Assembly (NCBI GenBank): GCA_035221665.1
Contig: CM069133.1
Location: 138,074,001-138,138,000 of the forward strand
Source: Okamejei kenojei
Taxonomy: Eukaryota
Reading direction: 5' to 3'
DNA length: 64,000 nucleotides
Part shown: positions 5,982 to 62,584 of the stretch, piece by piece
How the letters are laid out: each line of letters opens with the position of its first letter
Numbering within the stretch: position 1 is the stretch's first letter
Position numbers and translations under genes: made by a program
The notes under the pieces: generated by a model
Seen by the model: only the letters and a program-made list of their open reading frames with translations
Database searches by the model: none
What the model was told of the DNA's origin: nothing

Positions 5982-6027
<46 letters not shown>

Positions 6028-8960
6028 AGGAACAACTACAGGACTGTTTGGAATCTGTAGACAGGGCAATGTTCAAGGACTCGGCAACGGACTTGAAGTC
6101 GTTACAGACTTTATAAAGAAAAGTGTGGAGGACTGCATCCCTACAAAAACCTTCCGAGTGTTTCCCAATCAGAAACCTTGGATGAACTGTGAGATCCGCA
6201 CTCTTCTGAACACCAGACACCAGGCATTCATGTCTGATGATACAGTGGACTACAAGAAGTCCAGATATGACCATCAAAGAGGCCAAAAGGGAGTTCTGCT
6301 CCAAACTGGCGGATGAGACAGATGTTTGGCAGCTGTGGCGGGGCCTGAATGCAATCACCTCCTACAAGGCCAAATCAGGAGGCAGCTCAAATGTTGGCGA
6401 AACATCACTCCCTGACGAGCTCATTGCGTTTGACAGGGAGAATACTGATGTGCCTTCCCGAGCCCCCATTTGCTGTGATGGTATTTCAGTCTCAGTCACA
6501 GAGGCCGACGTCAGGAAATCCTTCAGAGGGGTGAACCCTCGAAAAGTGCCTGGACCTGATGGAATACCCCGTCATGTTCTAAAAACCTGTGCGGACCAAC
6601 TGACTGGAGTTTTTTTTTGGTTTGTTTTTTTTTGTTTTTTTTTGTTAGAAGTAAGTACAATAGTGTGGTTCTTGAGTACCTAATACATACATACATATTT
6701 CCATTCTTGTACAACTTCGTATTTGTAATTTAATAATAAAAGAACAGTGAGAGAAAAAATATATAAAGAGTGTCGGAATAGATAGACAAGCGAGTAGAAA
6801 CAGATACCAAAAGAAATAAAGGACAGAGATGAGAAGCTAAAAAAGATTGAAAAAAAGGAGAAAGTAGAGAAAAGAGAGATTAGGAGAGATCTACCTATTT
6901 CGTTTTTTTGCCCATCCGTCACCCGGTTGTAAACCATTTAATTTCTAAGGTTATGTTATGTTGCACCATCTACTTGTAAAAAGTTGATAAAAGGAGACCA
7001 AGTCTTTAAGAATTGGTCTACTTTGCCTAGTAGGAGGAATCTCATTTCTTCAAGATGTAGCGTTTCCGACATATTTGAAATCCACATTTTGAATGTTGGC
7101 GTGGTTGCGTTTTTCCAAAATTTGAGTATAAGTTTTTTTGCTGTTATTAAACCGTAATTAAGAAAAGCTTCTTGGAATATAGTTAGTTTACTTCCCTCTT
7201 CCATTGATCCAAAGATAATCAGATCTGTATAGGGGTTCAATTTTGTGTTAAATAGTTTTGTAAAAATTCCAAAAATTTCATTCCAAAATGTATGCAGTTT
7301 TGTACGAGACAAAGGAATGTGCTATAGTGGCATTTTGAGTTTGACATTTATCACAGATGGGGGAAACATTTGAAAATATTTTATTCAGTCTAGTTTTCGA
7401 ATAGTATAATCTATGTAAAATTTTAAATTGAATTAAGTTATGTCTTACATTAATTGAACATTTATTTACATATAATAGATTTTTTTCCCATCTCTGACTG
7501 GAGTTTTTACGGACATTTTCACCTCTCACTTCTGAAGTCTGAGGTCCCCACCTGCTTTAAAAGGGCATCAATTATACCAGTGCCCAAGAAGAGCAAGGTG
7601 ACGTGCCTCAATGACTATCGACCTGTGGCACTAACACTTGTGGTGATGAAGTGCTTCGAGAGGTTGATCATGGTGCAAATCAACTCCTACCTTGACAAAA
7701 ACCTGGACCCAATGCAGTTCGCTTACCGTCACAACAGATAAACAGTGGATGCGATCTCGCTGGCCCTCCACTCCACTCTGGACCTCTTGGACAATATAAA
7801 AACTCATATGTCAGGCAGTTATTTATCGATTACAGCTCGGCATTTAACACAATCATCCCCTCCAAGCTGGTTACCAAACTCTCAGAACTGGGTCTCTGCG
7901 CATCCCTCTGCAATTGGATCCTCGACTTCCTCATTCACAGACCACAGTCCGTTCATATTGGTGGAAATGTGTCAGCCTCGATAACAATCAGCACGGGAGC
8001 ACCTCAAGGCTGCGTGCTCAGCCCCCTGCAATACTCACTCCATACTCATGATTGCATAGCCGGTCACAGTGCGAACTCCATCATCAGGTTCGCTGACGAC
8101 ACCACTGTTGTGGGACGTATCACTGATGGGGATGAGTCAGAGTATAGAAGAGAGATCGAGCAACTGTCCATATGGTGCCAGCACAATAACCTGGCCCTCA
8201 ACATCAGCAAAACCAAGGAACTGATTGTGGACTTTGGAAGGAGTAGGATGGGGACCCACAGTCCCGTTTATATCAACGGGTCGATGGTTGAAAGGGTCAA
8301 GAGCTTCAAATTCCTGGGCGTGCACATCTCTGAAGATATGCAATTATTAAAGCACATCAGCGCCTCTACTTCCTGAGAAGATTACGGAGAGTTGGTTTGT
8401 CAAGGAGGACTCTCTCTAACTTCTACAGGTGCACAGTAGAGAGCTTGCTGACTGGTTGTATCATTGCTTGGTTCGGCAACTTGAGCGCCCTGGAGAGGAA
8501 AATACTTCAAAAGGTAGTAAATACTGCCCAGTCCATCATCAGCTCTGACTTTCCTTCCATCGAGGGGATCTATCGCAGTCGCTGCCTCAAAAAGGCTGGC
8601 AGCATCACCAAGGACCCACACCATCCTGGCCACACACTCATCTCCCTGCTACCTTCAGGTAGAAGGTACAGGAGCCTGAAGACTGCAACGTCCAGGTTCA
8701 GGAATAGCTACTTCCCCACAGCCATCAGGCTATTAAACCTGGCTCGGACAAAACTATCATCACTAATAACCCATTATCTGTTATCTGTTATTTGCACTTT
8801 ATCAGTTTATTAATTCATGTGTGTATGTATTTATATAATGGTATATGGACACACTGATCTGTTTTGTAGTCAATGCCTACTATGTTCTGTGTGCCGAAGC
8901 AAAGCTAGAATTTCATTGTCCTATCAGGGACACATGACAATAAACTAACTTGAACTTGAA
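5340..8960 (+). mobile_element. Rex1-clade (Rex-Babar) LINE, 5'-truncated, frameshifted APE+RT ORF2; interrupted by L1
   Basis: APE motifs ETWL, GGGV, YIPP, GDFN, LDHCY, SDH; RT motifs GPDG, YRPVAL, QFAYR, QGCVLSP, FADD; C-terminus HPGH..LLPSGRRYRS; AATAAA then (CTTGAA)n tail. Confidence 0.92.
6615..7493 (-). mobile_element. 5'-truncated L1/Tx1 fragment (ORF2 C-terminus, 3' UTR, A-rich tail)
   Basis: QFKILHRLY, CDKC..H, FWNEI, KLILKFWK..PT..WI, FLKTWSPF; poly-T on plus at ~6610-6643; 15-bp TSD CTGACTGGAGTTTTT at 6600-6614 and 7494-7508. Confidence 0.92.
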
Positions 8961-16215: not shown

Positions 16216-17391
16216 GTTATCAAGCATGATCTTATTGGGGAGTGGGGTAGGTTTGCTGGGCTGTGACCTACTGCTGATTCTAATTCATATAGCCGTGCGT
16301 TTGCTCCAACTGCTGATTTCTGAAGCAAGGATTACATCTTGCAAACAGAATGCGTTAGTAGTTCTCAGATAGGAGCTAGGGATAGAATAAAGGGATTTTG
16401 ACAAGATCATATAAACTTTGAGAATGAATCAGTTTTTCATTGAATCCACAAGTCTGTGTTACTGTTCTGTGAAGTGCAATCATTGCTTTCTACTTACGAA
16501 GTGCATTTATTCTTCATCTTAGTGCGAATTGTTAGATTTAGTGACAGTTACAATCGCATCACGTGGCGAAAAATGACACTACCATGGACATTTTAGTGTT
16601 GAGCTTTCCTGTGAAGAAAGAAAAAATAGGTTTTATATTAGTTCTGAAGCTGGAGAGTTTTTGTTTTAATCTGAATTATGTGACAGGATAGCATCATTCT
16701 ACTGACAAATAATGTATAATACATGCCCTTCAGTGGGGTTTATATAACCTTGTGACTTGGGAAGGATGGATAACATTATTACATTTCATTCTCATGAATA
16801 TGAAGTATTGCAATGACAGTAAAAATGGTAACAGTATTAAATGATATTTTAATAAGCCATGTATTTAATACTGTTGTGAGGAATATTAATAGCTGCTCCC
16901 ATTTATAAAAAGAAAACTACTTTGCTGTTTATATCGATTACGTACTATATTTTAATTAATTACAGCCCCTGTGTTCTTCTAGTTCAGGTCAACGATTAAA
17001 GACTTCCTGAACATAATTATCCACGATGACTTCCCCTGGGCACCTTTAGGTTCATCCATGGACAGAGTTGTTCATGTAATATTTCTTGTATCCAGTTACC
17101 ATTAGCTTTCTGCAGCAGGGGCCTTGTGTGAGGTTAATGAATCAAAACTCATTGGATGTCTTGCAACACCCGACCGGGATTTATAAAATAAATTGGTTGC
17201 AATTTTTATGACTTCTGATGTGGACTGTGTGTTTTGTTGTTTTCTAACATTATGTTTGACGGTGGGAATGGTTTGTATTGGATGCAGTCTCGTTGAAAAT
17301 AGTGGGGACATGAGCAACTGCAGATGCTGGAACGCAAAGTGCTGGAGTAACTCAACAGGTCAGGCAGCATCTCTGGAGGATATGGATAGGT

Positions 17392-18160
17392 GACGACACC
17401 ACGGTGGTAGGTCTGATCAGCGATAACGATGAGTCAGCCTACAGGGAGGAGGTCCAGCACCTGACAACCTGGTGTGCCGATAATAACCTCGTCCTCAACT
17501 CCCAGAAGACGAAGGAAATAATTGTCGACTTCAGGAAGAACAGAGGGGGCAGACACACCCCCATCCATATAAACGGGACTGAGGTGGAGAGGGTCTCCAA
17601 CTACAAATTCCTCGGGGTACACATCTCGGAGGATCTGTCCTGGTCCCTCAACACCTCCAAGCTGATCAAAAAGGCGCAGCAGCGCCTTTACTTCCTGAGG
17701 AGGCTCAAAAAGGCCCACTTGTCCCCCCCGATCCTGACCAACTTCTACCGATGCACCATTGAAAGCATCCTGACCACCTGCTTTACGGTATGGTACAGCA
17801 GTTGCACCGTAGCAGACAGGAAGGCACTACAACGGGTGGTGAAACTCAATGGATGCCCTCCACCGAAAACGGTGCCTGAGTCGGGCCGGGAAGATCATCA
17901 AGGACCCCTCCCACCCTAACCATGGACTGTTTGCCCTCCTACCATCGGGGAGGCGGTACAGGAGCCTCAGGTCCCGCACCAGCAGGATGAGGCGTAGCTT
18001 CTACAATAACACCATCGCACTGCTGAACTCGGAGTCCCGCCGATAGATTTCCACATCTGTATTTATTTATCTGTACTTATCTGTATATTGCTATCACTTC
18101 GTGCTGTCACAAAACTGCATTTCGTTGTACCAATACTTGTATATGTACAATGACATTAAA
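17392..18160 (+). mobile_element. Rex1-clade LINE 3' fragment inserted in a minus-strand PLE terminus (17305-17397 and 18161-18183)
   Basis: [50 protein letters not shown]; the flanks rejoin as GGTGACG...GCTTTCTTCAGAC. Confidence 0.88.
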
Positions 18161-24200: not shown

Positions 24201-24815
24201 TCCTGATTACACCTCCTTCTGTGGGGTTAGCTTTGACAGTGTTCATCCTCATAATCTTTACACGTTAATTGTGCCAGTTTGATTGTCCTAGTCTCCAACT
24301 TCTGTAAATAATCCCTTTGCTCGCCACACCCCTTTCTTTGCAACATAAAAGCAGATTTGTTTTTTCACGTTTGCAGATCTGATCAAAGATCACTGACTTT
24401 TTTCTCTCTCACTGGATGCTGACTGGCCTACAGGACCTAATTTTTTTATTTTTTTTTACTTCAGATTTCCAGCATCTGCAGTCTTCTTGGTTTTCAGTCA
24501 TTTGAAGCAGTTAGCTGAAGGGCAAGAGAACAGGGTATTGGTGAAACATTGTTTCAATTGCATCAGAAGATCTGAGATTCCTTTATGCAGTTCTGCAGTT
24601 GTATAGGGCTCTGGTGAGACCACATCTGGAGTATTGTGTACAGTTTTGTGTCTCCTAATCTGAGGAATGACATCCTTGTGATTGAGGCAGTGCAGCGTAG
24701 GTTCACAAGATTGATCACTGGGATGGCGGGACTGTCATATGAGGAAAGATTGAAAAGACTAGGCTTGTATTCACTGGAGTTTAGAAGGATGAGGGGCAAT
24801 CTTATAGAAACATAT

Positions 24816-27800
24816 AAAATAGTAAGATTAAACGAGAACTTACCAAGTTTGAAGTTTGATCGTTATTTTATGAGTTACGATGAGGGATTACGTGAAGAAG
24901 CCCCGCCTGGCGCATGATCGGCATACTTCAAAGCAGCGGCATGAAAAACCCAGCACCAATAGCCGGAGTAAGATAGTAAGGCTCAACATAGACTAGAACT
25001 ACCAGATGATCATTTATTTTACGAGGGTCGGGAGTGGAGGGCACGTAATCCCTCATCGTAACTCCTCATAAAATAACGATCAAACTTTAAACTTGGTAAG
25101 TTCTCGTTTAATCTTACTATTTTACTTCGGAGTCACGTGAGTGACTACGTGAAGATTTTGTAGCTCTGTGTTTTTTATGTCGTAGATTCATTCCATACGA
25201 CACTCCGGCTCAGTCAACACAGTAGTGAGTAAATAATACATCTTTTAAACATTGCTTCAGTTTATGTAATAAGTCTTTTAATTATAAAAGAATGAAAGTA
25301 ATAACCCTTCTATCGTAGGGGAAGATTTATAACCAAAGATATAAATTGATAATATAAAACAAAGCAACAATCAAAGAGAACCCAACACTGCGTGTCCAAC
25401 CCTGACACTGTGAGAAACTGGTTTCTCGTAAACTTTGAAAAGTTTATTTTACATCATCCTACAACATCTAATTTTTGATCGAGTGGCCCGTCCTGTGCCT
25501 TTGCCGTGGATGTACCTACCTCCCTGGTGGAGTAACTTTTAACATCTCAATGTCTACTCCTGCTGAGTCCCAAAACCTGTTTTAACCATCTAGAATGTAA
25601 CTATCTAGAACCATCAGTTTGTACTTGTAATTTTATGTGTTTTTTTGTGTGTAATAAATAGCGCTGTCTCACCACCACGGAGACTCTTGCCTACTTCAAC
25701 ATATTGAGTCAATGCTTAACCACACATCATTTTTGGTCGACAGGATATGCATTAAAATTTACCTTGGTTCCAGCTCCTCCTGGTCTGCTTTGTTCGGTTA
25801 AGTCATAAACATATAAGACAATGTTATCTGTAGCCACATGCATACAGTCTAACGTAACATTTGCAATGTTTGTGCTGATACTAAAGCCATGAGCATTATT
25901 ACTTCAAATGTTAACTTATGAAACAGTGATAGAATTGGAGCCCATTGCCTAAGCAAAGTAAGAACTATGCTGACCTCCCAAACATCTGCATTTCTACTTT
26001 GGGCAGATTTTTGTATATATTCCTTTCCCATATCGGGATATTAACGGTTGACCCGATAGATTCATGGTCAGCAATTTGTCCTAAATAGGACGATAAAGCA
26101 CTATGAGCCCTATTAATGGCCCTATTGCTTAGGTGCTGATCAAAATGCAATACAGCAAGGAACTCCAATATATCTGATATGTTAGCAGTATGATAAAATA
26201 TCTTTGACTGTCTACCAAAGACTTCCAATTTCTTTATATAACCAAAATATTGTTTTTAATGCTATTTTTCCAAGCTGCAGTTATAACATTCATGGTCCTA
26301 TCCGACAGTCCAAGCTCTTGTAATGGTCTGGTCAGAACCCACAGATTAACAAATTCATATGATCATGCCATGGATGAATTTCTGCAACAAATTACTGCAG
26401 CTAGGAATCGTCATAAATGGTTCAATTATCATTCTAAACATCAATGTGAACCATGACTGTGTCCGATTTGGGCCACCAAACCGCCCGTGGCAGAGTCTTG
26501 CTATATTTTCATCAGATATTGCCTAATCAGACAGAATGGGGAACATAAAAGAACATATTTCCCCCTCAATGTAGTGAAAATGCATCCACCGCTACTGCTC
26601 CTGGGTTGGGTTCCCATGAGACGTATTTGGGCAATTGGTGATTTAATCTAGACGCAAACAGATCAATGTCAGGTAATCCATACCACTGACAATGTTTTTC
26701 AAACTTGTGAATTTAATATCCATTCTGTATTGTCTTTAAATTTTCGTGATCTGTTGTCTGCCACAATATTGTCTCTCCCTGAGATAGATAGCTGAAAGCC
26801 AAATATTCTTAAAGATACACCAATGCCACATCTGGTTAACCAGATAATCACATGATAATGATCTTACTCGACCCATGTGATTGATATATGCCACAACTGT
26901 GGTATTGTCTACTTGTAATTGGACATGCAAATCTTTCATAGTAGAACAATAAGCTTTAAATCCATAAAAGCTCCTAACAACTCCAAATAATTAATACCAA
27001 ATGTTTGGAGAAATAAGTTCTTGGACAATCCATCTGCCACCCCCTGGTGTTATTGTCCGTAGCCCCCTAGATAAGGGACGTATCAGATATTAACCTGATA
27101 AGAACAGATATTACACTTATCTTAGCCCAAAAACCGAGAAGCTATCCACCATCCGAGAATACTTGCTTCAGTTTGCAATGACTGCTGGCTGCTGAGCTAA
27201 TATGTTTTTAAGCAGCTTGTGGAACATTCTCAATCCGCCACTGTAATTCTGATAAAGCTTCCTTTGGCAATTGCGTAGGCCTGTCAAAATGGCCTGCACA
27301 CTCTTCTAGTGCATGTTTTTTTTTGCCCTTTGGAGCTTTTTTGGTAATGCAGTGGACCAACTCTACTGCAGAAATAGTGTTACTAATTTACCTAAGCTCC
27401 TTCTTGGATGGAGGGATAAGGCTTGTCAACAAGGCAACGACACACATTTGTAATATTGACACTTTGTCTCTTGGTAAATTTAACGAACATGGTACTGAAT
27501 CACTCACAAACCCCAAATAGTAAATTGTTGGGGATGGCTGAAGCTTAGATTTTGTTGGATGGATCAGGACCCTAGCCTTTCAACAGGTTTGTAGTTGCTG
27601 CACTAGTTTTTCAGCTGACTCCTGATCAGCATTGCAATTACAAATGTCATCAAGATAAACCATGACCATGTGTCCTTATCAGTGCGAGTGCTGGTTTCAA
27701 CTATTGTGTGAACAGCCTAGAAGCTGAGCTTAATCCATTAGATAATGCCTTAAATTTCCATAGCTGACCCATCTAATTAATTTTCAATTACCTGTGACAT

Positions 27801-29460
27801 GATGATAAATTGGTACTAAATCATACGCATCCTGCAAATCTATAGTAACCAATTAACAACCTGTTGATAACAACTGCCTTGCAGTGTTGAAGGTGTCCAT
27901 TTTGATACATTAATGTTTTTTCTGGACAAATGTATTAAAATGTGTTGATGTCAAGAATGACTCTACAACCACCATCTTTCTTCTGCCTGGGGAGATTATT
28001 TGATACAAATTATTGTGGATGCTTATTCTGTTTTTTCCCATTACACTTTCCCTAAATAAATTTCTTACCTCTTCTTTATTTGAGATTTTTCAGGTGCAGA
28101 AACATAAAATAGGATTAGGTTTATTCTGTACAGGTGGATCAACTCCTTCTACAAATTTTATTGTAGATCCTTACACAGTATCTAATATAAACCGATCAGC
28201 TGTTATGCAATATCATTTATCATAACACACCTGTAATCTACTACCAATCGGAGGTTCAACAAAAGCTTCCTCTGTGATAGAATAAAGTTTTTGTACCTCT
28301 CCAAATGCACACGATGGCCTTCTTTCCCCAACAATATGGGTTAACATAAGGCTGTGCTGGATGAAAATACTTCCTCACCATACTCCTGCCTCTGTTTGAT
28401 CCAATATCAAATCCCCTTCACATTGGACCAGCCAATTTTGCAAAAGTTTTATGAGGCTGATAGTCTTTGCCTCTTTATCAACGTCTTTGATTTGTTTTAG
28501 GCAGGTTTACTCCGTAAATAACCAGGAGTTTGAACATAGCTTGTTCTGTATTGACCTGCAAATCTAAAGTGCAAAATGGTCCGAATGGCAATTTCCTCTC
28601 ATACCATTGAGCTCAACATATGAGCTATAAAACAATGCCAACTTGTCTTTTATAAATTTTGGTCATTGCACAATCTTTCACTTGCTTCCCACAAGCAGTG
28701 ATGCCACCCGCAAACTTGAATTTCTTTTGAATCGTATTCCCTGTGCCTCCGCACTATTGAAGACATGGGTGCCCTAATCGGATTCACCATTGGCACCCTA
28801 GTAAAGCACAAGTGTTTTCATATAAATCTGCTGTTTCAACCATAACAGCCTCCTGAAGCTGGTGAGAAACCAATTAATGTTGGCCACCATGGTTACCTTC
28901 CATGGCCTCACCGCTTCCTTCAGGTATCGTACTTTGTACCCTTGGTTGAAAAATAATCTGGAGTATTCCACCATTTAATTCATTCTGAGCCATAAGGCTT
29001 TCTTGTCTGGAGGCCTTTCCTTATTAGAATCATCTAAAACCCCGGCTTCTCAGACTTCTTTATTTTCCTCCCCACTGGAGATTCTTCCCGTGGCTTTTGG
29101 TTTGTGGAGCGACTAAATGCTCCCTACGGTTAATTTCAACGGACACCGGTATCGGAACCGGTTCCGCACTAATCTGCCGTCCCGATCGCTGAGTTTCTAC
29201 CCGGGACGCATTTTAACCTCCGTTTTTCCTCCGGAGTTTTTTCCCTTTTACTTTCAACTCCTGCTGGCTCTGCATGCCAGCACCACGGAGTTTGAAACAC
29301 GCCCTGTAAGTAATTTAATCCACTTACCTGTGGGCCTGTTCCTTACCGCTGGTGGAGCTGCGCTCTGCAGCTCTTTGCCTACCGACAGCGTCGATGTAAT
29401 GCCGATCATGCGCCAGGCGGGACTTCTTCACGTAGTCACTCACGTGACTCCGAAGTAAAA
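24816..29460 (-). mobile_element. DIRS1-type tyrosine-recombinase retrotransposon, copy 1 (degraded ORFs, intact ends)
   Basis: 36-bp ITRs at 24889-24924 and 29399-29434 (1 mismatch); ICR 25042-25155; colinear with 57497-61998; DNTTVVAYINHMG RNase H motif in ORF 26736-26939. Confidence 0.93.
27067..27145 (-). pseudogene. RNU2: 3'-truncated U2 snRNA copy (nt 1 to ~78) inside DIRS copy 1
   Basis: Minus strand ATAGCTTCTCGGTTTTTGGGCTAAGATAAGTGTAATATCTGTTCTTATCAGGTTAATATCTGATACGTCCCTTATC versus vertebrate U2 ATCGCTTCTCGGCCTTTTGGCTAAGATCAAGTGTAGTATCTGTTCTTATCAGTTTAATATCTGATACGTCCTCTATC; absent from copy 2. Confidence 0.93.
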
Positions 29461-29844
29461 TTAAAAATGGACTGGACAAGCTAGATGTAGGAAAAATATT
29501 CCCAATGTTGGGTGAGTCCAGAACCAGGGGCCACAGTCTGAAAATAAAGGGGAAGCCGTTTAAGACTGAGGTGAGAAAAAACAGAGAGTTGTGAAATTGT
29601 GGAATTCCCTGCCACAGAGGGCAGTGGAGGCCAAGTCACTGGATGGATTTAAGAGAGAGTTAGAAGGAGATCTAGGGGCTAGTGGAATCAAGGGATATGG
29701 GGAGGCAGGCACGGGTTATTGGTAGGAGGCGATCAGCCATGATCACAATAAATGGCGGTGCTGGCTCGAAGGGCCGAATGGCCTCCTCCTGCACCTATTG
29801 TCTATGTTTCTATGTTTATCATTTAACAGCTCTATAAGTTAGAC

Positions 29845-45498: not shown

Positions 45499-48244
45499 CT
45501 GATGTAACCCTGATGTAATCCTTCATCATTTTAAATGTGCTCAACAGGTTGCATCTGTAAGTTCTATTTGGTTGAAAAAAGGAACCCAGTTTTTTCAGCC
45601 TGCCCTAATAATTGTATTCAATCCAGTGTCCAGCACCTTCGTTGCACATCTAACAGATGATGTAAAAAATATAAGCTATAAATCAGATTAATTATTTTTT
45701 TAAATATCAACTCAAACGATGCAATGCATTTGATGTTTTGGAATTGTTTTTTGACATTCACTATATGTGTAAATATATGTAAAGGAGCATGTGTATTCGT
45801 TTGAACATGTCCAAAGTGTCCAAATAATTTCAACTTCATTTTGATGAAGAAACCAAATAAATAAATGATGACACGTGGTATAGGGCAGCACCAAATTTGG
45901 GAAAAGCGTGATGGTCAGGAAATTTTAAAAGCCAAATTTGGAAGAAAGGAATGAAAGTGAAAGATGAGTTAACAAAAAGTAATTTAACACGAAATTACAT
46001 AATACAAAGTATTTTATAAAACAAAGTACTGGAAATGTGTAACAAACAGGAACATCTGTGGAGAGAAAAACCCATTAAGAGTCAAAATGCCTAACTGAAA
46101 TGGACCCCGTTTTAGTGACACAGAGTATTAATGAAATAAAGCAATTAAATGAATAAATTGTAATAAAGGAACCATAGCAACATAGTGGTATGTTGCAGCT
46201 GCAGTAAGTGGGAGTTGATGGAAACCCTAGTGATTAATGGACACTATGCCTTGTAAGTGTTTGCCGCTCAAGAAACTTTGGCTGAAGTTGATGAGTTGGA
46301 GTCTGAGATTCAGACCCTGTGGTGCATCAGGGAGGGGGGAAGTTTTAAGAAGCAGTTGCATTCCTAAGATTAAGTTCCGCAGAAATTGTCCGTCAAGAGG
46401 CAGGGGGCATTTGCATGAGGCAGGTATGTGGACCCAGCAGGTAGCATTGGAGGAGCCTTAATTCTTGCACTTTTCCAATATACAAAATATGGTGGGAAGA
46501 TGAGCAAACTGACCACAGCACTGCTGAATGACCATTGACGTGGGGGGGGGGGGGGGGGGGGGGGGTGAAAACAAATGATCTGGTGATAAGGGCAGTACAA
46601 TTCACAGATTAGATATTTGCTCTGCAGCTGTGTTGCTTATTTCAAGCTGTGGTTAATAACAGCACATTGGAGTTGGTGAGGAAATTGGAATGGGAGAGGA
46701 AAGAGCAGTTTATTTTAGTCCATTCAAGAAATGACAACATAGATAGCACTCGAAGAAGGTTTATCTGAAGGAGTATTGGCAGTCAGGGTATAAATTAAGT
46801 ATTAGAACCACAAATTAGTAGTCTCTGGGTTATTATTTAAACTGCATAGAAGTTGACATTGGTCAACAAGAGCAGAATGCATAGCTCAATATGTGCCATG
46901 GGAAAAAATGGGGACATAAGGAAGTGCAGATGCTGGACAATTAGAAAACAATACCAGTGTGAAGAAGGGTCTAGACTGAAAACATCGTCTATCCCTGTCC
47001 TCAAAATGTTGTCTGACCGGTTGAGTTACTCCAGCACATTGAGTTCTATGGGAGAAAATGGTTTTAATTTGTCAGACATGAACCAATATAAGTGGGGATA
47101 GGGCAAACTGTCTTATTGTGACAGGTTTCACTAGAATTGGTCAAATTGACTAAAATTGACTACTAACTGTAGGTAAGGCTTTAAACTAACTATAGATAGA
47201 CACAAAATGTCAGTGTAACTCAGCAGGACAGGCAGCATCTCTGGAGAGAATGAATGGCTGACGTTTCAGATCGAGACTGTGTCCTACACATTTAAACTAC
47301 CTGGTGGGGAAGGCATTTCCAATGAAGGGAAATTAAGATCATTAATGTGAATGGACAAAGTCATAATGCGGGATAATTTAAAAAATAGCTTTTCTGATAA
47401 TGATAAGATTATGTTTATCATTACTTAACATAATAAACAATGATGAACAACTGTCAAGTACATAAAAAACATTAAGTTACTGATCCAATTCGAGACGGGT
47501 CAGGCAAAATGTAGAAAGCCCAAATTTAAGGTTCTTAATCTGAATGCACACATTGCCAATCAGGAAGTGTAGAAGCATTGGGAGAAATTGTTCTTGGATT
47601 CCCCAACAGTTGGAGTAATATACGGTATGGTATGAAACAGAAAACTAAAGGGATATGGAATATGAATTGTGGAGGAATACAATACACTTAGACTGAGCAT
47701 TGCAAGTTAGCTGCAGTAGTATGGTAAGCATATTCATAGGGTGCATTAGAGATGCTTTTCCAAATGAGTTATTGAGAAGCTAATAAGGGTATTTTACATG
47801 TGGAATTGTACATTAAGAAATGTTTAATTAATAATTGTGCAAAAGTGATACTCTTTTGATAAAATATTATATCCTGATTAAAAGCAATTTAGTTGAATTT
47901 GAAACCAGAATTTTAATTTAAACAAAGGAAATATTAGGCAAGATTGCTTTTGGTAAATTGGGAAACTATATTAAAACATAAGACAGTAAGCAAGTAAAAA
48001 ATAATGTTTAAAGAAGAAATACACAGTTTACAGCAAACATGTATCCTGGCAATACTCAAAAACCTAAAGAAAATTGGTTCAGCCATGGTTAAGCAAAGAA
48101 GTTAAAGATGGTATTAAATCAAGAAAATATCTTAAAACCACCAACAGAGGTACTTACTGTTAGCTTTAGGGAGCATTTCCTAATTTAGAACAAAAGGGAA
48201 AAGAAAGTGAGATGAGGGAGGAAGACAATATAATATAATATAAT

Positions 48245-49047: not shown

Positions 49048-49786
49048 AACGCATATTTTTTTTCTCTGGAGTTGCTGCCTGACCCACTAAGCACTTTGTG
49101 TCCATCTTCTTTACGAAAGGAAAATCTATTTTGATAAATCTATTAGAATTTGACAATTTTGTTATGAAAGGATGGATAAGGGAGAACAGAGGATGTAGTG
49201 GATTTGGAATTGATTCTTGATAAACTTGCCACTGGGAAATAAAATTCAAAATCGGAGCACATAGGATTGGGTGCGTGGATTGAAGATTGGTTAATGGACC
49301 GAAAATAAAGCTTGGAATAAATAGGCCAAAATATTAAAATCTTTACACTAAATATCAGTGTAAAGACCCCGGCAGCTCATAATCCACCTCATTGATTTGG
49401 GCGAGGGATTCAAGTACACAGGATGCAAGTTTGCCGATGAAACTAGATGGTTGTGTGGGCTCTGTAGAGGATTTGAGAGAGGCTTCAGTAGAATATCCTA
49501 TTCATAGATTAAGTGACTGGGAGAAGACATGACAGATGGAATAGAATGTAGAAAGATGTGAACTTGACATGGGCTTTGGAATAAAAAAATGGAAAAGCAG
49601 AGTTTATGTTTAAATGGCAAGAAGTGCAAACCAGATGGTGTAGAGAAATACGTGGGTATCCTTGTACACAAATCACTGGATGTTAATGTTCAGCTACAGC
49701 AGCCGATTAGAAAGGAAACAGTATGTTGACCTTTATTGGGAGAAAGTTTTAGTTCTAGAGTAAAGACATCTGTCTGCAATTATATA

Positions 49787-50843
49787 AAGAACAATGGCAG
49801 CAGACAGTCAGGGTGGGCAGTAGGACATCAAAAACCATAGCCGTGAGCACTGGCTCGCCCCAAGGCTGTGTCCTAAGCCCCCTGCTGTTTAGTCTTACAC
49901 ACGACTGTACTGCTAGACTCAACAACAACTTCATCAACAAGTTCGCTGACGACACAACAGTGGTGGGTCTCATCAGTGACAAAGATGAGTCGGCATACAG
50001 GATGGAGGTGGAGCTGCTCACAGGATGGTGCAAATCCCACAATCTCATTCTCAACGTGGGAAAAACGAAGGAGATGGTGGTTGACTTCAGGAGGGCGGGA
50101 AAACAATGCCATAAACCTCTGCACATCGATGGAGCTGATGTGGAAAGGGTCAGCAGTGTGAAGTTCCTAGGACTCCACCTGTCAGATGACCTGACGTCCA
50201 CGACCAACACCACAGCACTGGTCAAGAGAGCCCAGCAGCGACTACACCCTCTCCGAAGACTACGGAAAGCAGGTCTCCCCACTGCACACCTACGAACTTT
50301 TTAAAGGGGGACAATCGAGAGCACATTAACCTACGGCATCACCTCCTGGTTCGGGAGCTGCAAGGCGTACGAACGGCACCAACTGGACAGGATTGTGAAG
50401 ACCGCCAGCAGGATTATTGGTGCTCCACTCCCTTTCCTGCTGGACATATACAGGAAGAGATGTATTAGCAGAGCCATCTCCATCATCAAAGACCCCTACC
50501 ACCCATCGCATCACATATTCTCCATCCTGCCATCTGGGAAGAGGTACAGGAGCATCAGCTGCAAAACCAGCAGGATGCTCCTCAGCTTCTTCCCGCAGGC
50601 TATAAGACTGATAAACGGACTTTGCCCCCTGCCAAAGTATCGCGCACCAACCGCCAACCTGGACACACTGAAGCAGAGCCATTGTCGTGCCACTGCCGAT
50701 CGGAACTCGTGATATATGTACTTTTATTCTCTATTTCTATTTATTTTTTACCGCACACTGAATGGACACTGGTTGAGAAACGTTTTTTCGTTTTCCTCTG
50801 GGTATGTAAGTACTCAGAAAAATGATAATAAAGATATACAATA
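49787..50843 (+). mobile_element. Rex1-clade LINE 3' fragment
   Basis: [31 protein letters not shown]; one in-frame stop at 50302; probable TSD TTATATA. Confidence 0.9.
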
Positions 50844-52740: not shown

Positions 52741-53389
52741 TCTGCATTTAGTTTCTTCAATGTAAAGAATGCCATATTCTGAACACTACAATAAATGCAA
52801 GAAAAATGCTGCTTCACCTGGAAGAACTGACTGGTTTCCTTGGTGATGGGAAGGCAAGAGGTGAAAGGATGGGTGTTGCATCTCCTGTGGAGATGCAAGC
52901 AACATGCCAAAGTGGAGTCGAGTGGAGTGGGGAAGGGGGGGGGGGGGGGGGGGGGAATTATTATTTGTCTCCCCTGGCTGAGGTGGCTGGAATCAGAATC
53001 CTAATTTGAAGACAAGAGGTCAATCATTTAGAGAAGATATCTCACCTTGAAGGATCTTTGGAATAATTTGCAGAAGAAATCCATTCATTGAGAGGATCTT
53101 TGGAATGTTATATCCTCCATACTAGGAAAGCTCAGCCACCGATGGATCAGGACAGAGGCTGAAAGTTTTAGAAATTGAAGAAATTATGGGAAAAGGACTA
53201 GTGCAGAAAAGAGGCACCATTTCAAATATCAACAAAGGTCCTCTGGATGGACACAGATGGCTCAGTGGCTTATCCTTGCTGCAATGTCTGATGCCCTTAC
53301 ATACAAACCTCTAATAACTTTACATTCCTTTTATCCTGACCTCAAAATTCTGTAGTTTCTTCAACTCAGTCATACTTTCAGTTATTTGA

Positions 53390-57345: not shown

Positions 57346-57679
57346 TGTTACTGTGACGTGTAGTAATTTGAATGTGCTGACAGAGCGAGAAGTGGAATTA
57401 CTTTTATTAACACAGTGCACCACAAAAATCCAAATCTAAAGGCATTTTCAACACCAGACATTCATGTTGTAGCTAAAACAACCATGGTGCTTCTACTTTA
57501 CTTTGGAGTCACGTGAGTGATTACGTGAACAAGCCCCGCCTGGCGCATAATCGGCATTACATCGACGCTGTCGGTAGGGAAAGAGCTGCAGAGCGCAGCT
57601 CCACCAGCGGTAAGGAACAGGCCCACAGGTAAGTGGATTTACTTTACTTCCAGGGCAGTTCAAACTCCATTACGCTGGC

Positions 57680-59128
57680 GTGCAGAGCCAGGAGCAGTTA
57701 AAAATTAAAATGGAGAAAGTCCAGAAAAAATCACCGCGGGTTAAACGAGCGTCCCGGGGAGAAGAAAAACAGTCGAGACATGAGATAAGTGCGGAGCCGG
57801 TTCCGATACCGGTGGCCGTGGACATACCCGTTAGTGAGCCCGTAGTTGCTCCTCAAACAAAAGCCACAGAGGAAATTCCTGTATCAAAGAACAGTAAAAG
57901 GAAATCCGAGAGGCCCGTGGTTTCTGATGACTCTGATAGTGAAAGTCCTCCGGATAGAAAAGCCATGTGGCTAAGAATGGAACACATGGAGAAAGTTCTC
58001 CAAGGGTCCAAGAACCCAGAATATTCCCAAGCAGGCCCAGAGGGGTTTGCGTATCAAAAATACGGCACTATGGCAAATTGGGAATTTGAAACTCCAGAGC
58101 CTGGAATTGGGCTGGAGGAAGTCTCCTTTGAGCAAGTGTCAGGAGTACCAGGGCTGCAAGAGACAGACCCTGAAGGTGGTGATATTGGCCATGAGTACCC
58201 ACCACAATACAAAAAGATGAAACCAGGTGTGCCTGATGTAGCACAAAGTTTTGCTATACCTGAAGGAAGTGGTGAGGCCATGGAAGAAAACCTGGCGGCC
58301 AACATTAATTACTTGGTTTCTCACCAGCTTCAAGAGGCTGTTATGGTTGAAGCAGCAGAATTATATAAAACACCGGTGAATTGTGCCTCACTGAGGGTAC
58401 CTACGGTGAATGCGACTATTTGGACTCCCATGTCATCAGTTATGCGGGCACTGGAAATACGTTTTCAAAGAGTCCTCAAACTTATTTCAGCTGGCATCAC
58501 TGCTTTTGGGAAGCAAGTGGAAGGTTCTGCAATGACCAAAATTCAAAAAGATATGTTGGCTTTATTCTGCAATTCATTTTTTGAGCTGAATTGTACGAGG
58601 AAAATTGCCATTTGGCCCATTTTGCGCCCTAGATTTGCAGGTTTGTGCAGAACTAGTAATGTTCAAACTCCTGGTTATTTGTTCGGAGAAAACCTGCCCA
58701 AGCAAATCAAAGATATGGATGAAGAGGCAAAATCTATCAGCCTCATGAAACCCTTCGTCTTTGGCCAAAGAAGGTCTGGTGCAATGAGAAGGGGATTTGA
58801 TTTTGGAGCTGGAACATGCAGAGGCAGGAGTATGGTAAGGAAGTATTACCACCCAGCACAGCCTAATGTTCACCCATATGTGGGGAGAAGGAGACCATCA
58901 CATGTGTTTGGAGAGGTACAAAAACTTTATTCTATCACAGAGGAATCTTTGGATGAACCACCTATTGGTGGTAGATTACAATTATTTTATGATGAATGGG
59001 ACTGTATAACATCTGACCGGTTTATATTAGATACTGTGTCAGGAGCTACAATAAAATTTGTAGAAGGTACTGATCCACTGGTACAGAATAAACCTAATCG
59101 TGTTCTGCACTTGATAAAGCTGAAATAA
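57680..59128 (+). CDS. DIRS ORF1 (gag-like) running in frame into the RT N-terminus; first ATG at 57709
   Basis: P.NC..L.VP.VN..IW and LFGENL gag-like motifs; PIGGRL..F...W..IT.D..IL is the typical start of DIRS RT. Confidence 0.75.
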   Translation: MQSQEQLKIKMEKVQKKSPRVKRASRGEEKQSRHEISAEPVPIPVAVDIPVSEPVVAPQTKATEEIPVSKNSKRKSERPVVSDDSDSESPPDRKAMWLRMEHMEKVLQGSKNPEYSQAGPEGFAYQKYGTMANWEFETPEPGIGLEEVSFEQVSGVPGLQETDPEGGDIGHEYPPQYKKMKPGVPDVAQSFAIPEGSGEAMEENLAANINYLVSHQLQEAVMVEAAELYKTPVNCASLRVPTVNATIWTPMSSVMRALEIRFQRVLKLISAGITAFGKQVEGSAMTKIQKDMLALFCNSFFELNCTRKIAIWPILRPRFAGLCRTSNVQTPGYLFGENLPKQIKDMDEEAKSISLMKPFVFGQRRSGAMRRGFDFGAGTCRGRSMVRKYYHPAQPNVHPYVGRRRPSHVFGEVQKLYSITEESLDEPPIGGRLQLFYDEWDCITSDRFILDTVSGATIKFVEGTDPLVQNKPNRVLHLIKLK

Positions 59129-60828
59129 AAGAAGAGGTACATAATTTGTTTAAAAAAGGAGTTATTGAGAAAACTGTTAAGCATCCACAACAATTTGTAT
59201 CAAATATTTTTCCAAGACCTAAGAGAGATGGTGGTAGTAGAATCATTCTGGACCTTACACACTTTAATACATTTGTCCAGTTCAAGATGGATACCTTCAA
59301 CACTGCAAGACAATTGTTATCAGCAGGTTGTTACATGGCTACTATAGATTTGAAGGATGCGTATTATTCAGTACCAATTCATCGTCATTTTCGAAGGTAC
59401 TTAAAGTTTAGTTGGATGGGACAGCTATGGCAATTTAAGGCATTACCTAATGGATTAAGCTCAGCTCCTAGGCTGTTCACAAAATTGTTGAAACCAGCAC
59501 TTGCACAGCTAAGGGCACAAAAACACATTGTTATGGCTTATCTGGATGACATTTTAATTGTCAATGCTAATCAGGAGTCAGCTGAAAAATCAGTTTCAGC
59601 AACTACAAGCCTGTTTGAAAGGCTAGGGTTCCTGATCCATCCAACAAAATCTAAGCTACAGCCATCCCAAACAATTGACTATTTGGGGTTTGTGATGAAT
59701 TCAGTTACCATGTTAGTGACTTTACCAATAGACAAAATTGTTGATGTTACAAATGAATGTTGTTGCCTTATTCACAAACCTTATCCCTCCATCCGAGAAG
59801 TAGCAAAGGTTATTGGTAAGTTAGTAGCAGCATTTTCTGCAGTGGAATTTGGTCCACTACATTACCAAAATCTCCAAAGGGTAAAAGCATAAGCATTAAA
59901 AAAGCGAGCAGGCCATTTCGATAGGCCTATGCAATTACCAAAGGAGACTTTATCAGAGTTACAGTGGTGGATTGAGAATGTTCCACAAATTGCTAAAAAC
60001 ATGTTAGTACAGCAGTAGTAGTGTTTTTACAAACTGATCCAAGTGCTCTCGGATGGGGGGGGGGGGGGGGGGGGGGGGGGGTCGTCTACGGATAATTTCA
60101 CCAGCTGTGGTGGCAGATGGACTGTCCAAGAGGAATTGTTTCTCCAAACGTATGGTTTCAATTATTTGGAGTTATTGGGGGCATTTTATGGATTAAAAGC
60201 TTATTGTTCTACTATGAGGGATTTGCATGTCTAATTACAAGTAGACAATAATCACATGGGTGGTGTAAGATCATTATCATGTGTTTGTCTGGTTAACCAG
60301 ATATGGCATTGGTGTATTGATAATAATAATATTTGGCTTTCAGCAATTTATCTCCCTGGGAAAGACAATGGTGTGGCAGACAACAGATCAAGAAAATTTA
60401 AAGACAATACGGAATGGATGTTAAATCCACAAGTTTTCAATAATATTGTCAGTCGGTATGGATTACCAGACATTGATCTGTTTGCATCTAGATTAAATCA
60501 CCAATTGCCCAAATACGTATCTTGGGAACCCGATCCAGGAGCAGTAGCAGTGGATGCATTCTCGCTACATTGGGGGAATATGTTATTTTATGGTTTTCCC
60601 CCATTCTGCCTGATTGGGCAATGTCTTACGAAAATAGAGCAAGACTCTGCCACAGGCATACTGGTGGTTCCAAATTGGCCTACACAGGCTTGGTTCCCAT
60701 TGATGCTTAAAATGATTATGGAACCATTTATGACGATTCCTAGCTGCAGTAATTTGTTGGTGCAACCAGTAACAAAAGAAATTCATCCATTGCATGATCA
60801 TATGAATTTGTTAATCTGCAGGTTCTGA
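59104..60828 (+). pseudogene. DIRS RT / RNase H / Dam-like methyltransferase ORF with stops and frameshifts
   Basis: IDLKDAYY, LPNGLSSAPRLFTK, YLDD, YLGF, TD.S..GWG, NYLELL, N.VAD..SR, DIDLFAS, FPPF, VVPNWPTQAWFP. Confidence 0.92.
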
Positions 60829-60836
60829 CTAAACCA

Positions 60837-61608
60837 TTGCAAGGGCTTGGACTGTCAGATAGGACCATGGATGTTATAGCTTCAGCTTGGCGAAATAGCA
60901 CTAAAAAACAATATATGTCGCATATAAAGAAATGGGAAGTCTTCTGTAGACAGTCAAAGATATCTTATCATACTGCGAACATATCAACTGTATTGGAGTT
61001 CCTTGCTGGGTTGCATTTTGATGAGCACTTAAGCTATAGTGCCATTAATAGTGCTCGTAGTGCTTTATCGTCCTATTTGGGACAAATTTCTGACTGTGAA
61101 TCAATCGGGTCTCATCCATTAATATCCCGGTTTATGAAAGGGATTTTTAATAAAAATCCTCCAAACCCAGATATACAGAAATTTGGGATGTCAGCATTGT
61201 GCTTACTTTGCTTAGGCAATGGACTCCAATCACGTCAATGTCTTTGCAAAAATTAACATTTAAAGTGGTAATGTTAATGGCATTAGTGTCAGCACAAAGA
61301 GTACAAACATTGCAAATGTTACGTTTAGATTGCATGCTTCAGATAACATTGTGTTTTATGTTTATGGTCTAATCAAACAAAGCAGACCAGGGAAAACTGG
61401 GACCAAGGTAATGTTTAAAGCTTACCCTGTTGATCAAACACTGTGTGTAGTTAAACATTTGACTCAATATATTGAAGTAACCAAGAGTCTCCGGTGTGGT
61501 GAGACAGCGTTACTGATTACGCACAAAAAACACATACAAAAGTATCAGTACAAACCGTTTCTAGATGGTTAAAACAGGTTTTGGATTTAGCAGGAGTAGA
61601 CACTGATG
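60837..61608 (+). pseudogene. DIRS tyrosine recombinase, frameshifted and lacking the C-terminal H-x-x-R and Y
   Basis: ST.KQY, SAINSARSALS, HPLISRFMKG, LVSAQRV, KQSRPG, LCVV, SRWLK; the corresponding C-terminus survives (degraded) only in copy 1 at ~25420-25550. Confidence 0.88.
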
Positions 61609-62584
61609 AGTGTTGAATGGATTGAATTTACGACATAAAAAACACAGAGCTTCAAAATCTTCACGTAGTCACTCACGTGACTCCGAAGTAAAATAGTAAG
61701 ATTAAACGAGAACTTACCAGTTTGAAGTTTGATGAGGACGTTTTTTTATGAGGAGTTACGATAAGGGATTACATACCCTCCACTCCCAACCCTCATAAAA
61801 TAAATGATCATCTGGTAGTTCTAGTCTGTTAGCCTTACTATCTTACTCCGGCTATTGGTTCTGTGTTTTTCATGCCGCTGCTTTGAAGTATGTCGATCTT
61901 GCGCCAGGCAGGGCTTCTTCACGTAATCCCTCATCGTAACTCCTCATAAAATAATGATCAAACTTCAAACTGGTAAATTCTCATTTAATCTTACTATTAT
62001 ATGCCACATAGTAAACAAAACTACCAGTTACTATTAGTTTTATTTGGCAGACAACCAGTCATATTTTGCAGTTTTTATTGTCTGTCAAATGATACTTATG
62101 CCCACAAACTACATAACATTTCTTATTTTGGCATTTAAAACAACGGGACATTATAGTTAAATCTGTTGCTGTCAGTAATATGGTTAAAATGATTAGGGAG
62201 GTCTGTAGATGTGATAATGTTGCAAACAATGGTCTGATTGTCAATTCCGATGAATATATTTTGCCCATGCCCATGTCATCAATTGGTAAATTTGGTTGAT
62301 AAACAGTGTCATTTACTTACAGTGGACATTTAATATTTATATGCAATAAATCGGATCAATTAAAAATGAAAATCTCCCGACACTGATGGCAGAGTGAACA
62401 ATTTGACTCAAATAGTGTTTTTTGATCTCTTGAGATTACCAAATAGACCACTAGTAAATATTTAATAGAATAGTCTACTATTCCTTTCTCCAAAATTCAA
62501 ATAATTATTTCAAGTTCTTTCCTTAACATAAGAGGCTTTGTCACATTGGTGCCAATTTTTCAGGAGCTACCTCAGAGAAACTGG

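Follow-up and report, generated by a model that had tools for sequence, protein, structure and literature searches.

How did the 5′ part of a U2 snRNA come to lie within the pol region of a DIRS1-like retrotransposon, and is it a one-off fossil or has it been spread by the element that carries it? In the window, i.e., the whole 64-kb stretch of DNA analysed here, an Rfam search yields one U2 match (RF00004) on the minus strand with 71.2 bits and an E-value of 4.9e-12, the gathering threshold being 46. It is the sole match at gathering level across the 64 kb, and the sole snRNA among the three matches with E ≤ 1; two weak miRNA matches were dismissed, as their scores lie far below the gathering thresholds. 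Window position 27145 aligns to nucleotide 1 of the U2 model, and the unambiguous core (27070..27145, minus strand) comprises 76 nt, corresponding to model nucleotides 1-77 minus nucleotide 28, which is deleted. Over model columns 1-66, 60 positions are identical according to a manual count on the Rfam alignment. Substitutions relative to the consensus occur at 27133, 27132, 27128, 27111 and 27094, of which the one at 27111 changes the branch-point recognition hexamer GUAGUA to GUAAUA. The match ends after stem IIb, at nucleotide ~77-85 depending on the choice of the 3′ boundary, and 99 model positions are absent, including the 3′ half with its stems and the Sm site. The window sequence shows no A-tail at the U2 piece, which is bordered by DIRS coding sequence on both sides. 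A functional U2 snRNA gene is ruled out by the altered GUAGUA hexamer and the 99 absent model positions. To our knowledge, U2 has no internal promoter. A first-pass annotation of this DNA had already proposed a sense-oriented U2 fragment in the G-W-G codons of a DIRS motif, starting at nucleotide 1, with GTAGTA altered to GTAATA and with neither poly-A nor Sm site; the Rfam alignment and the translation bear out each of these points. Its 3′ end at nucleotide ~78 agrees with a core reaching nucleotide 77, but the boundary itself is ambiguous between 27070 and 27062.

The element that harbors this fragment, hereafter copy 1, is a full-length DIRS1-like retrotransposon of 4647 nt (24815..29461, minus strand), delineated by self-comparison and tblastn, in which every reading frame is broken. 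Its left inverted terminal repeat (29399..29461, minus strand) has inverted matches at 24872-24924 (91%, 53 nt) and 25119-25155 (100%, 37 nt). The right inverted terminal repeat, including an extension, occupies 24815..24924 on the same strand in the self-comparison, and the terminal repeats pair as 29399-29450 versus 24872-24924 with 91% identity. An internal complementary region (25042..25155, minus strand) consists of two adjoining halves that match the left and right termini in the self-comparison: 25119-25155 corresponds to the left end (100%, 37 nt) and 25042-25124 to the right end (95%, 83 nt). Between these repeats, the minus strand carries the remnants of three coding regions. ORF1, gag by position and without a Pfam match, was traced in several frames with the ORF1 of copy 2 as tblastn query (28099..29296). 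The pol remnants (26335..28248), comprising RT, RNase H and a methyltransferase-like part, were traced with the intact homolog P0001 and are split by the U2 piece. The tyrosine recombinase remnants (25500..26362, the lower bound being approximate) were found with a copy 2 ORF that matches Phage_int_SAM_4. Copy 2 itself (57493..62001, plus strand) was identified by self-comparison, has ~80% identity to copy 1 and lacks U2. In Pfam, an ORF of copy 2 matches RVT_1 with an E-value of 2e-21, while the N-terminal SAM-like integrase domain Phage_int_SAM_4 scores below the cutoff (E 2.3e-4) and the frameshifted catalytic part of the recombinase has no Pfam match. Methyltransferase matches are weak (PCIF1_WW on copy 2 and Dam on P0001, both with E 0.003). 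The layout of DIRS1-like elements, as given in the excerpts of PMC3266345 and PMC7192593, comprises inverted terminal repeats, an internal complementary region and the order ORF1-pol-YR. By its inverted ends, paired internal complementary regions and pol domains, the host of the U2 fragment is DIRS1-like. Out of 120 homologs listed, the one close relative that carries a name belongs to the skate Amblyraja radiata (66%).

Some further features of these repeats were observed. Copy 2 lacks ~340 nt that are present in copy 1 near the end of the recombinase (61606-61608 versus 25547-25205). A single consensus splice-donor site lies ~135 nt from the left end of either DIRS copy, at 29327 (minus strand) in copy 1 and at 57629 (plus strand) in copy 2, and might be used to make a spliced transcript for the recombinase ORF. 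Elsewhere in the window, other retroelement remnants with RVT_1 and/or ALKBH8_N matches are located at 7696-8810, 17314-17916 and 49759-50301; this pairing of domains is typical of Rex1/Babar-like LINEs. The SINE-like repeats of the window are presumably of the shark and ray type; taken with the skate homolog, they suggest a cartilaginous fish.

Copy 1 carries U2 in sense orientation within the G-W-G codons of the TDAS..GWG motif, which we take to be part of RNase H. Its translation reads EASILGW|W ahead of the insert and I*GATDN behind it, such that the DIRS motif continues over the insert and no host sequence is lost. A proportion of 117 out of 120 homologous pol proteins shows TDAS..GWG at fixed spacing with nothing inserted; the other three are a longer regex match that still holds the normal motif, a frameshifted protein and a TDVS variant. 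Protein P0077, which has 85% identity to copy 2, shows the peptide SDGGLRI in a shifted frame, and this peptide suggests that the empty site was a run of six Gs. Compared to such a site, copy 1 is 82 nt longer, which is not a multiple of three, and the added sequence contains in-frame stops. The 3′ junction (27062..27069, minus strand) is a G-run common to the 3′ arm of U2 stem IIb, with the Rfam consensus ugggggcc, and the W-G-A codons of the DIRS element; here, a TAG occupies the expected Trp codon, and position 27063 differs between copies in public runs. Because the Rfam consensus also has a G-run at this place, positions 27069-27062 can be read as U2, as DIRS or as one half of a short duplication, so that the 3′ end shows G-run microhomology. 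The 5′ junction (27146..27151, minus strand) reads TGGTGG in the sequence, an upstream copy of the G-run with a G immediately 5′ of U2 nucleotide 1. The target-site duplication is therefore 0-6 nt long: it reaches at most 6 nt, each copy having one mismatch, and vanishes when the G-run is counted as U2. The truncation point of the U2 RNA is complementary to the target, as the G-run of the Rfam consensus (rather than of the species' own U2) matches the DIRS G-run.

At the homologous position in copy 2, identified by self-comparison, lies a run of 27 Gs followed by TCGT (60055..60085, plus strand), which makes this site 25 nt longer than the six-G site. The absence of U2 from copy 2, noted in the first-pass annotation, thus stands, but copy 2 does not offer a clean empty site. 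In each of the two DIRS copies of the window, this one six-G run has been changed. The window has four uninterrupted G runs, 21-43 nt in length, all on the plus strand (5982-6024, 46542-46565, 52935-52955 and 60055-60081), versus C runs of at most 12 nt. These G runs may be real expansions or an effect of the assembly. The independent 25-nt G-rich addition in copy 2 at exactly the U2 site would suit a scenario in which a double-strand break at a fragile G-run, with no targeted endonuclease cut, was patched by microhomology with U2 cDNA or RNA and the product was then amplified. A short, degenerate duplication at a target that is not A-rich is compatible with this scenario as well. On the contrary, an exact start at nucleotide 1 requires run-off by a reverse transcriptase, and the run in copy 2 may be an assembly artefact. 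Moreover, as three other G-runs of 21-43 nt are present, G expansion appears to be general in this window. We therefore regard break repair as an improbable origin of the insert.

Four of the 24 listed public runs, from four studies, were mapped on positions 26500-27700 at 80% likeness. X1, X2 and X15 derive from organism A and X6 from organism B, with X15 probably being DNA. Runs from organisms A-D match at most 0.56 of the words of a 7.5-kb stretch, and these organisms may be relatives rather than the species of the window. All runs are fragmented contigs, for which summed depth does not equal copy number and to which true U2 genes may add depth within the insert. The junction data given below draw on 32 pieces out of 7054, 24 loose ends out of 608 and the 40 best-supported letter differences out of 250. 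Relative to the median of the other 28 bins, the summed depth in the two insert bins amounts to 1.38 and 0.51 (X1), 1.22 and 0.38 (X2), 1.09 and 1.38 (X6), and 0.88 and 0.93 (X15). As a rough bound, the insert-only bin in X1, X2 and X6 holds a depth equal to ~1800-2200 typical long contigs, or 58-71 after division by 31.

Several distinct junction versions are present in these runs. Contigs that start at 27137 and proceed upward with only nine U2 letters occur in X1 (n = 5), X2 (n = 5) and X6 (n = 7), and loose ends at 27137 in the same three runs spell a U2 variant that is 2 nt longer on the same DIRS 5′ flank. A loose end of X1 carries the two derived U2 changes of the window, i.e., the loss of nucleotide 28 and the change at nucleotide 36; since both U2 versions have these changes in common, they point to a single capture. 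Another X1 contig passes from the U2 body through the variant and on into the 5′ DIRS flank, of which it covers seven letters with a single change. In X15, a contig with depth 89.8 begins at 27022 and has changes at 27034, 27038, 27041 and 27063. It very likely reaches 27128, because the depth there leaves the same value (142.7 - 52.9 = 89.8), and by this depth arithmetic it would span 41 DIRS and 59 U2 letters. Three of the 32 pieces listed extend across a junction; they differ from the window at 1, 15 and 6 letters, and their U2 side comprises 16-27 letters, which is under the 31-letter bridging rule. The one contig that meets this rule is the X15 contig, deduced by arithmetic and absent from the listed pieces. 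The letter that completes a U2-like GGGGAC at 27063 accounts for 28, 25, 74 and 51% of the depth in the four runs, although it may be present in empty-site copies as well. Of the 11 joints listed, not one leaves out the insert alone, which is a weak negative since empty-site copies as diverged as copy 2 (80% identity) may escape mapping. X15 alone comprises at least three junction versions (depths 50, 89.8 and 52.9), and added lengths of 82, 83 and 84 nt coexist among the versions.

These observations might still be accommodated by a retrocopy at one or a few loci, with the junction variants being alleles, orthologs, or segmental or tandem duplicates instead of transposed copies, and with the depth stemming from true U2 genes or pseudogenes. 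Depth is indeed summed over overlapping contigs, and true U2 would map at 80% likeness. Distinct flanks of other insertions were not seen in the mapped runs either; because no second site with its own flanks was observed, transposition is inseparable here from tandem or segmental duplication. Nonetheless, even after the division by 31, the depth of the insert-only bin equals 58-71 typical long contigs in X1, X2 and X6, and X15 holds its three or more versions on its own. In addition, none of the five substitutions between insert and U2 consensus is found among the best 40 of 250 letter differences, and the copy in the window is a solitary full-length element. A restriction to few loci is hence hardly probable, and we consider it highly probable that the U2 insert is multi-copy and was spread by the element. 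Propagation, which the first-pass annotation had set against a junction unique to this locus, is favored by the junction versions in all four runs. As this sharing of the insert points to propagation, a one-off retrocopy after the integration of copy 1 is unlikely.

The same runs show additional structure around the insert. Linked differences at 27034, 27038 and 27041 lie beside the insert, the one at 27034 reaching 86% of the depth in X6 and 47-60% in organism A; they mark a second sub-lineage that is unequally represented in organisms A and B. An X1 contig with depth 29 (26991-27101) links DIRS sequence to a fold-back in which a part of the U2 piece is duplicated in inverted orientation. In the interval 26759-26903, several contigs skip 99-131 nt after RNase H, with one deletion form reaching a summed depth of 5340 in X1 and 3771 in X2. 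This suggests an amplified DIRS sub-lineage with an internal deletion.

An insert that persists in an amplified lineage may have been kept for a function, be it as an in-frame peptide, as a spliced intron or as an RNA module that aids replication. One frame is open over most of the insert and into GATDN, the added length of the variant would be 84 nt, and a YAG resembling an acceptor site closes the insert. The folding of stems IIa and IIb is retained, with a z-score of -2.04 and 6 out of 200 shuffles being equally stable. However, a TAG stands at the Trp position, one variant contig has a TGA upstream, and the three lengths of 82, 83 and 84 nt occur side by side. The acceptor-like end is matched in pyrimidine richness by 11 of the 159 YAG sites of copy 1, the GUAGUA hexamer is gone, and the variant has a rewritten stem I sequence. 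The intron reading was rejected: the GT...AG interval spans 83 nt versus 82 nt added, so splicing would not restore the frame. Five peptide words of the translated insert have no occurrence in the 120 pol homologs. A protein containing the translated insert was found in none of eight candidates and in none of 1.84 billion representatives, and a separate search returning 48 candidates retrieved the query as its only match. A functional role thus seems very improbable, and a neutral passenger is the better reading.

Our preferred explanation, to which we assign a probability of about 0.5, is one capture in an ancestral DIRS copy by LINE-type internal priming, with subsequent spread in trans. The target DNA would have used its G-run as a primer on the G-run of U2, located in the 3′ arm of stem IIb, the reverse transcriptase would have run to U2 nucleotide 1, and repair would have left the G duplication of 0-6 nt. 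Thereafter, the insert would have been a neutral passenger of a pol-dead element, many copies of which were probably made in trans by the enzymes of intact DIRS relatives, with at least two U2-bearing sub-lineages presumably amplified after the capture. Mobilisation in trans is the simplest reading because the pol frame is lost, the ends and internal repeats are kept, and the RT of DIRS-1 is trans-acting, as excerpts of PMC7192593 describe for Dictyostelium. The cis elements of copy 1 are intact in this respect, the repeats being 91-100% identical. The tailless retrocopies described in the excerpts of PMC5322556 are 5′-complete and internally primed, with an RNA end complementary to the target, and the 5′-complete, tailless U2 piece with its complementary end follows this pattern. 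Furthermore, in the excerpts of PMC5131818, all 15 of 15 template-switch captures in Drosophila replaced part of an ORF. Unlike in those captures, no DIRS sequence was lost here, which favors an insertion from outside. The presence of other, LINE-like RT remnants in the window also speaks for this origin. Against LINE priming, the target is G-rich rather than A-rich and the duplication of 0-6 nt is shorter than 8-30 nt, the consensus for tailless retrocopies being an A-rich TT/WAAAA target with a duplication of 8-30 nt (excerpts of PMC5322556). Among the vertebrates surveyed there, tailless copies are reported for therian mammals and anole only, and the word shark does not appear in the excerpts.

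The junction also fits a capture by the DIRS RT itself, and the two routes are not separable here. The first-pass annotation had named both, and both still fit, except that a one-off capture after integration of this copy has become unlikely. By double template switching at the G-run, the RT would have jumped onto a co-packaged U2 RNA, copied it to the cap and returned to the same G-run, possibly via cap-templated or untemplated C residues, after which the same lineage would have been amplified. Retroviral RTs are known to add C at capped ends. Such a switch forces the sense orientation, which would be only a 50:50 outcome for an insertion from outside, and it is in line with the G-run microhomology at the 3′ junction and the G directly 5′ of U2 nucleotide 1. 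It would also yield a fresh copy with intact ends, able to become a master at once. LTR elements show double template switching with microsimilarity and subsequent secondary amplification (excerpts of PMC5131818), and the RT/RH of DIRS is close to that of Ty3/Gypsy (excerpts of PMC3266345). Conversely, all 15 Drosophila cases involve a loss of element sequence that is not seen in the DIRS copy (excerpts of PMC5131818). Template-switch capture by DIRS was not found in the literature searched, and the term template switch is absent from the excerpted text of PMC7192593. We consider a switch by the DIRS RT possible, though doubtful, and retain LINE-type priming followed by spread in trans as the preferred reading.

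A comparison with known systems places the feature between several of them. Like the tailless retropseudogenes of U2 and other small RNAs (excerpts of PMC5322556), the piece is 5′-complete and 3′-truncated, lacks an A-tail and has an end complementary to its target. In contrast to them, its target is G-rich, its duplication is degenerate with 0-6 nt, its host falls outside the therian and anole range, and the U2 copy has probably been re-amplified inside another element. The LTR double-switch retroposition of maize Bs1 and Drosophila CG17604_r (excerpts of PMC5131818) shares the presence of a sense cellular RNA inside one retroelement, the junction microsimilarity and, probably, the later non-autonomous amplification. 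In the window, this microsimilarity is confined to the 3′ junction, the 5′ junction being the RNA end, and secondary amplification may be reflected by many diverged junction versions in the runs, whose flanking loci were not seen. Compared to the LTR captures, the host is a tyrosine-recombinase DIRS element that carries an snRNA instead of an mRNA and that has had none of its own sequence replaced (excerpts of PMC5131818). Since neither an A-rich target nor an ORF replacement is found, we assign the feature to neither the tailless retrocopies nor the LTR captures.

The Cassandra and Ajax TRIMs with 5S rRNA sequence (excerpts of PMC10946416) are also non-autonomous families that propagate a piece of a structural RNA; their 5S piece is located in the LTRs, where it provides a promoter, whereas the U2 piece lies in pol. 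Crocodilian SINEU elements, with heads derived from U1 or U2, similarly amplify U2 5′ sequence in a mobile family, and SINEU-3 occurs almost only inside one transposon family (excerpts of PMC4494074). SINEUs have the snRNA at their 5′ end, bear a poly-A tail and insert independently, whereas here the snRNA piece is internal and tailless, and shared junctions and derived changes point to one insertion carried by its host (excerpts of PMC4494074). U2 fragments that adjoin retroelement DNA are also known from the non-LTR elements Keno and Utopia; this topology was rejected, as these elements target U2 genes and insert into them (excerpts of PMC4640811) and U2 is located here inside a continuous DIRS element. 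An Rfam search of the 64 kb detected no 3′ part of U2. Compared to DIRS1-like elements as described in the excerpts of PMC3266345 and PMC7192593, the RNase H motif is broken by a cellular RNA. By analogy with these systems, the feature likely works like a non-autonomous retroelement carrying host RNA. No snRNA-carrying DIRS was encountered in the literature searched, which included few subscription papers, and a Repbase or Dfam consensus with the insert may exist; the excerpts of PMC7922186 and PMC9210276 contain nothing on snRNA in DIRS. Viral and metagenome contigs, sets that are unlikely to contain vertebrate repeats, gave zero matches for the junction or insert patterns and no loci related to the DIRS RT protein.

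Taken together, the locus likely belongs to a DIRS lineage that was amplified and bears a captured U2 fragment as its mark, and is more than a one-off fossil. Little is understood of how DIRS elements replicate, and Dictyostelium has been the main test system. If a full-length lineage with a dead pol has spread in an animal genome, it would offer natural evidence that DIRS elements are mobilised in trans in vertebrates, and it would be the first snRNA-carrying DIRS family found in the literature searched. If the capture was LINE-driven, tailless retrocopies would extend to a lineage in which the survey, as excerpted from PMC5322556, does not report them. Tentatively, a double template switch by the DIRS RT may instead have founded a long-lived, non-autonomous family of DIRS elements with U2, numbering tens to thousands of copies across two or more related species. 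If so, this would be the first retrovirus-like RNA transduction in tyrosine-recombinase retrotransposons; U2 would reach the replication particle of DIRS, and DIRS would count, alongside retroviruses and LTR elements, among the transducers of host RNA. The U2 insert provides a shared marker for dating DIRS sub-lineages between species, and U2-bearing DIRS elements would inflate U2 counts in the annotation of these genomes and in hybridisation.
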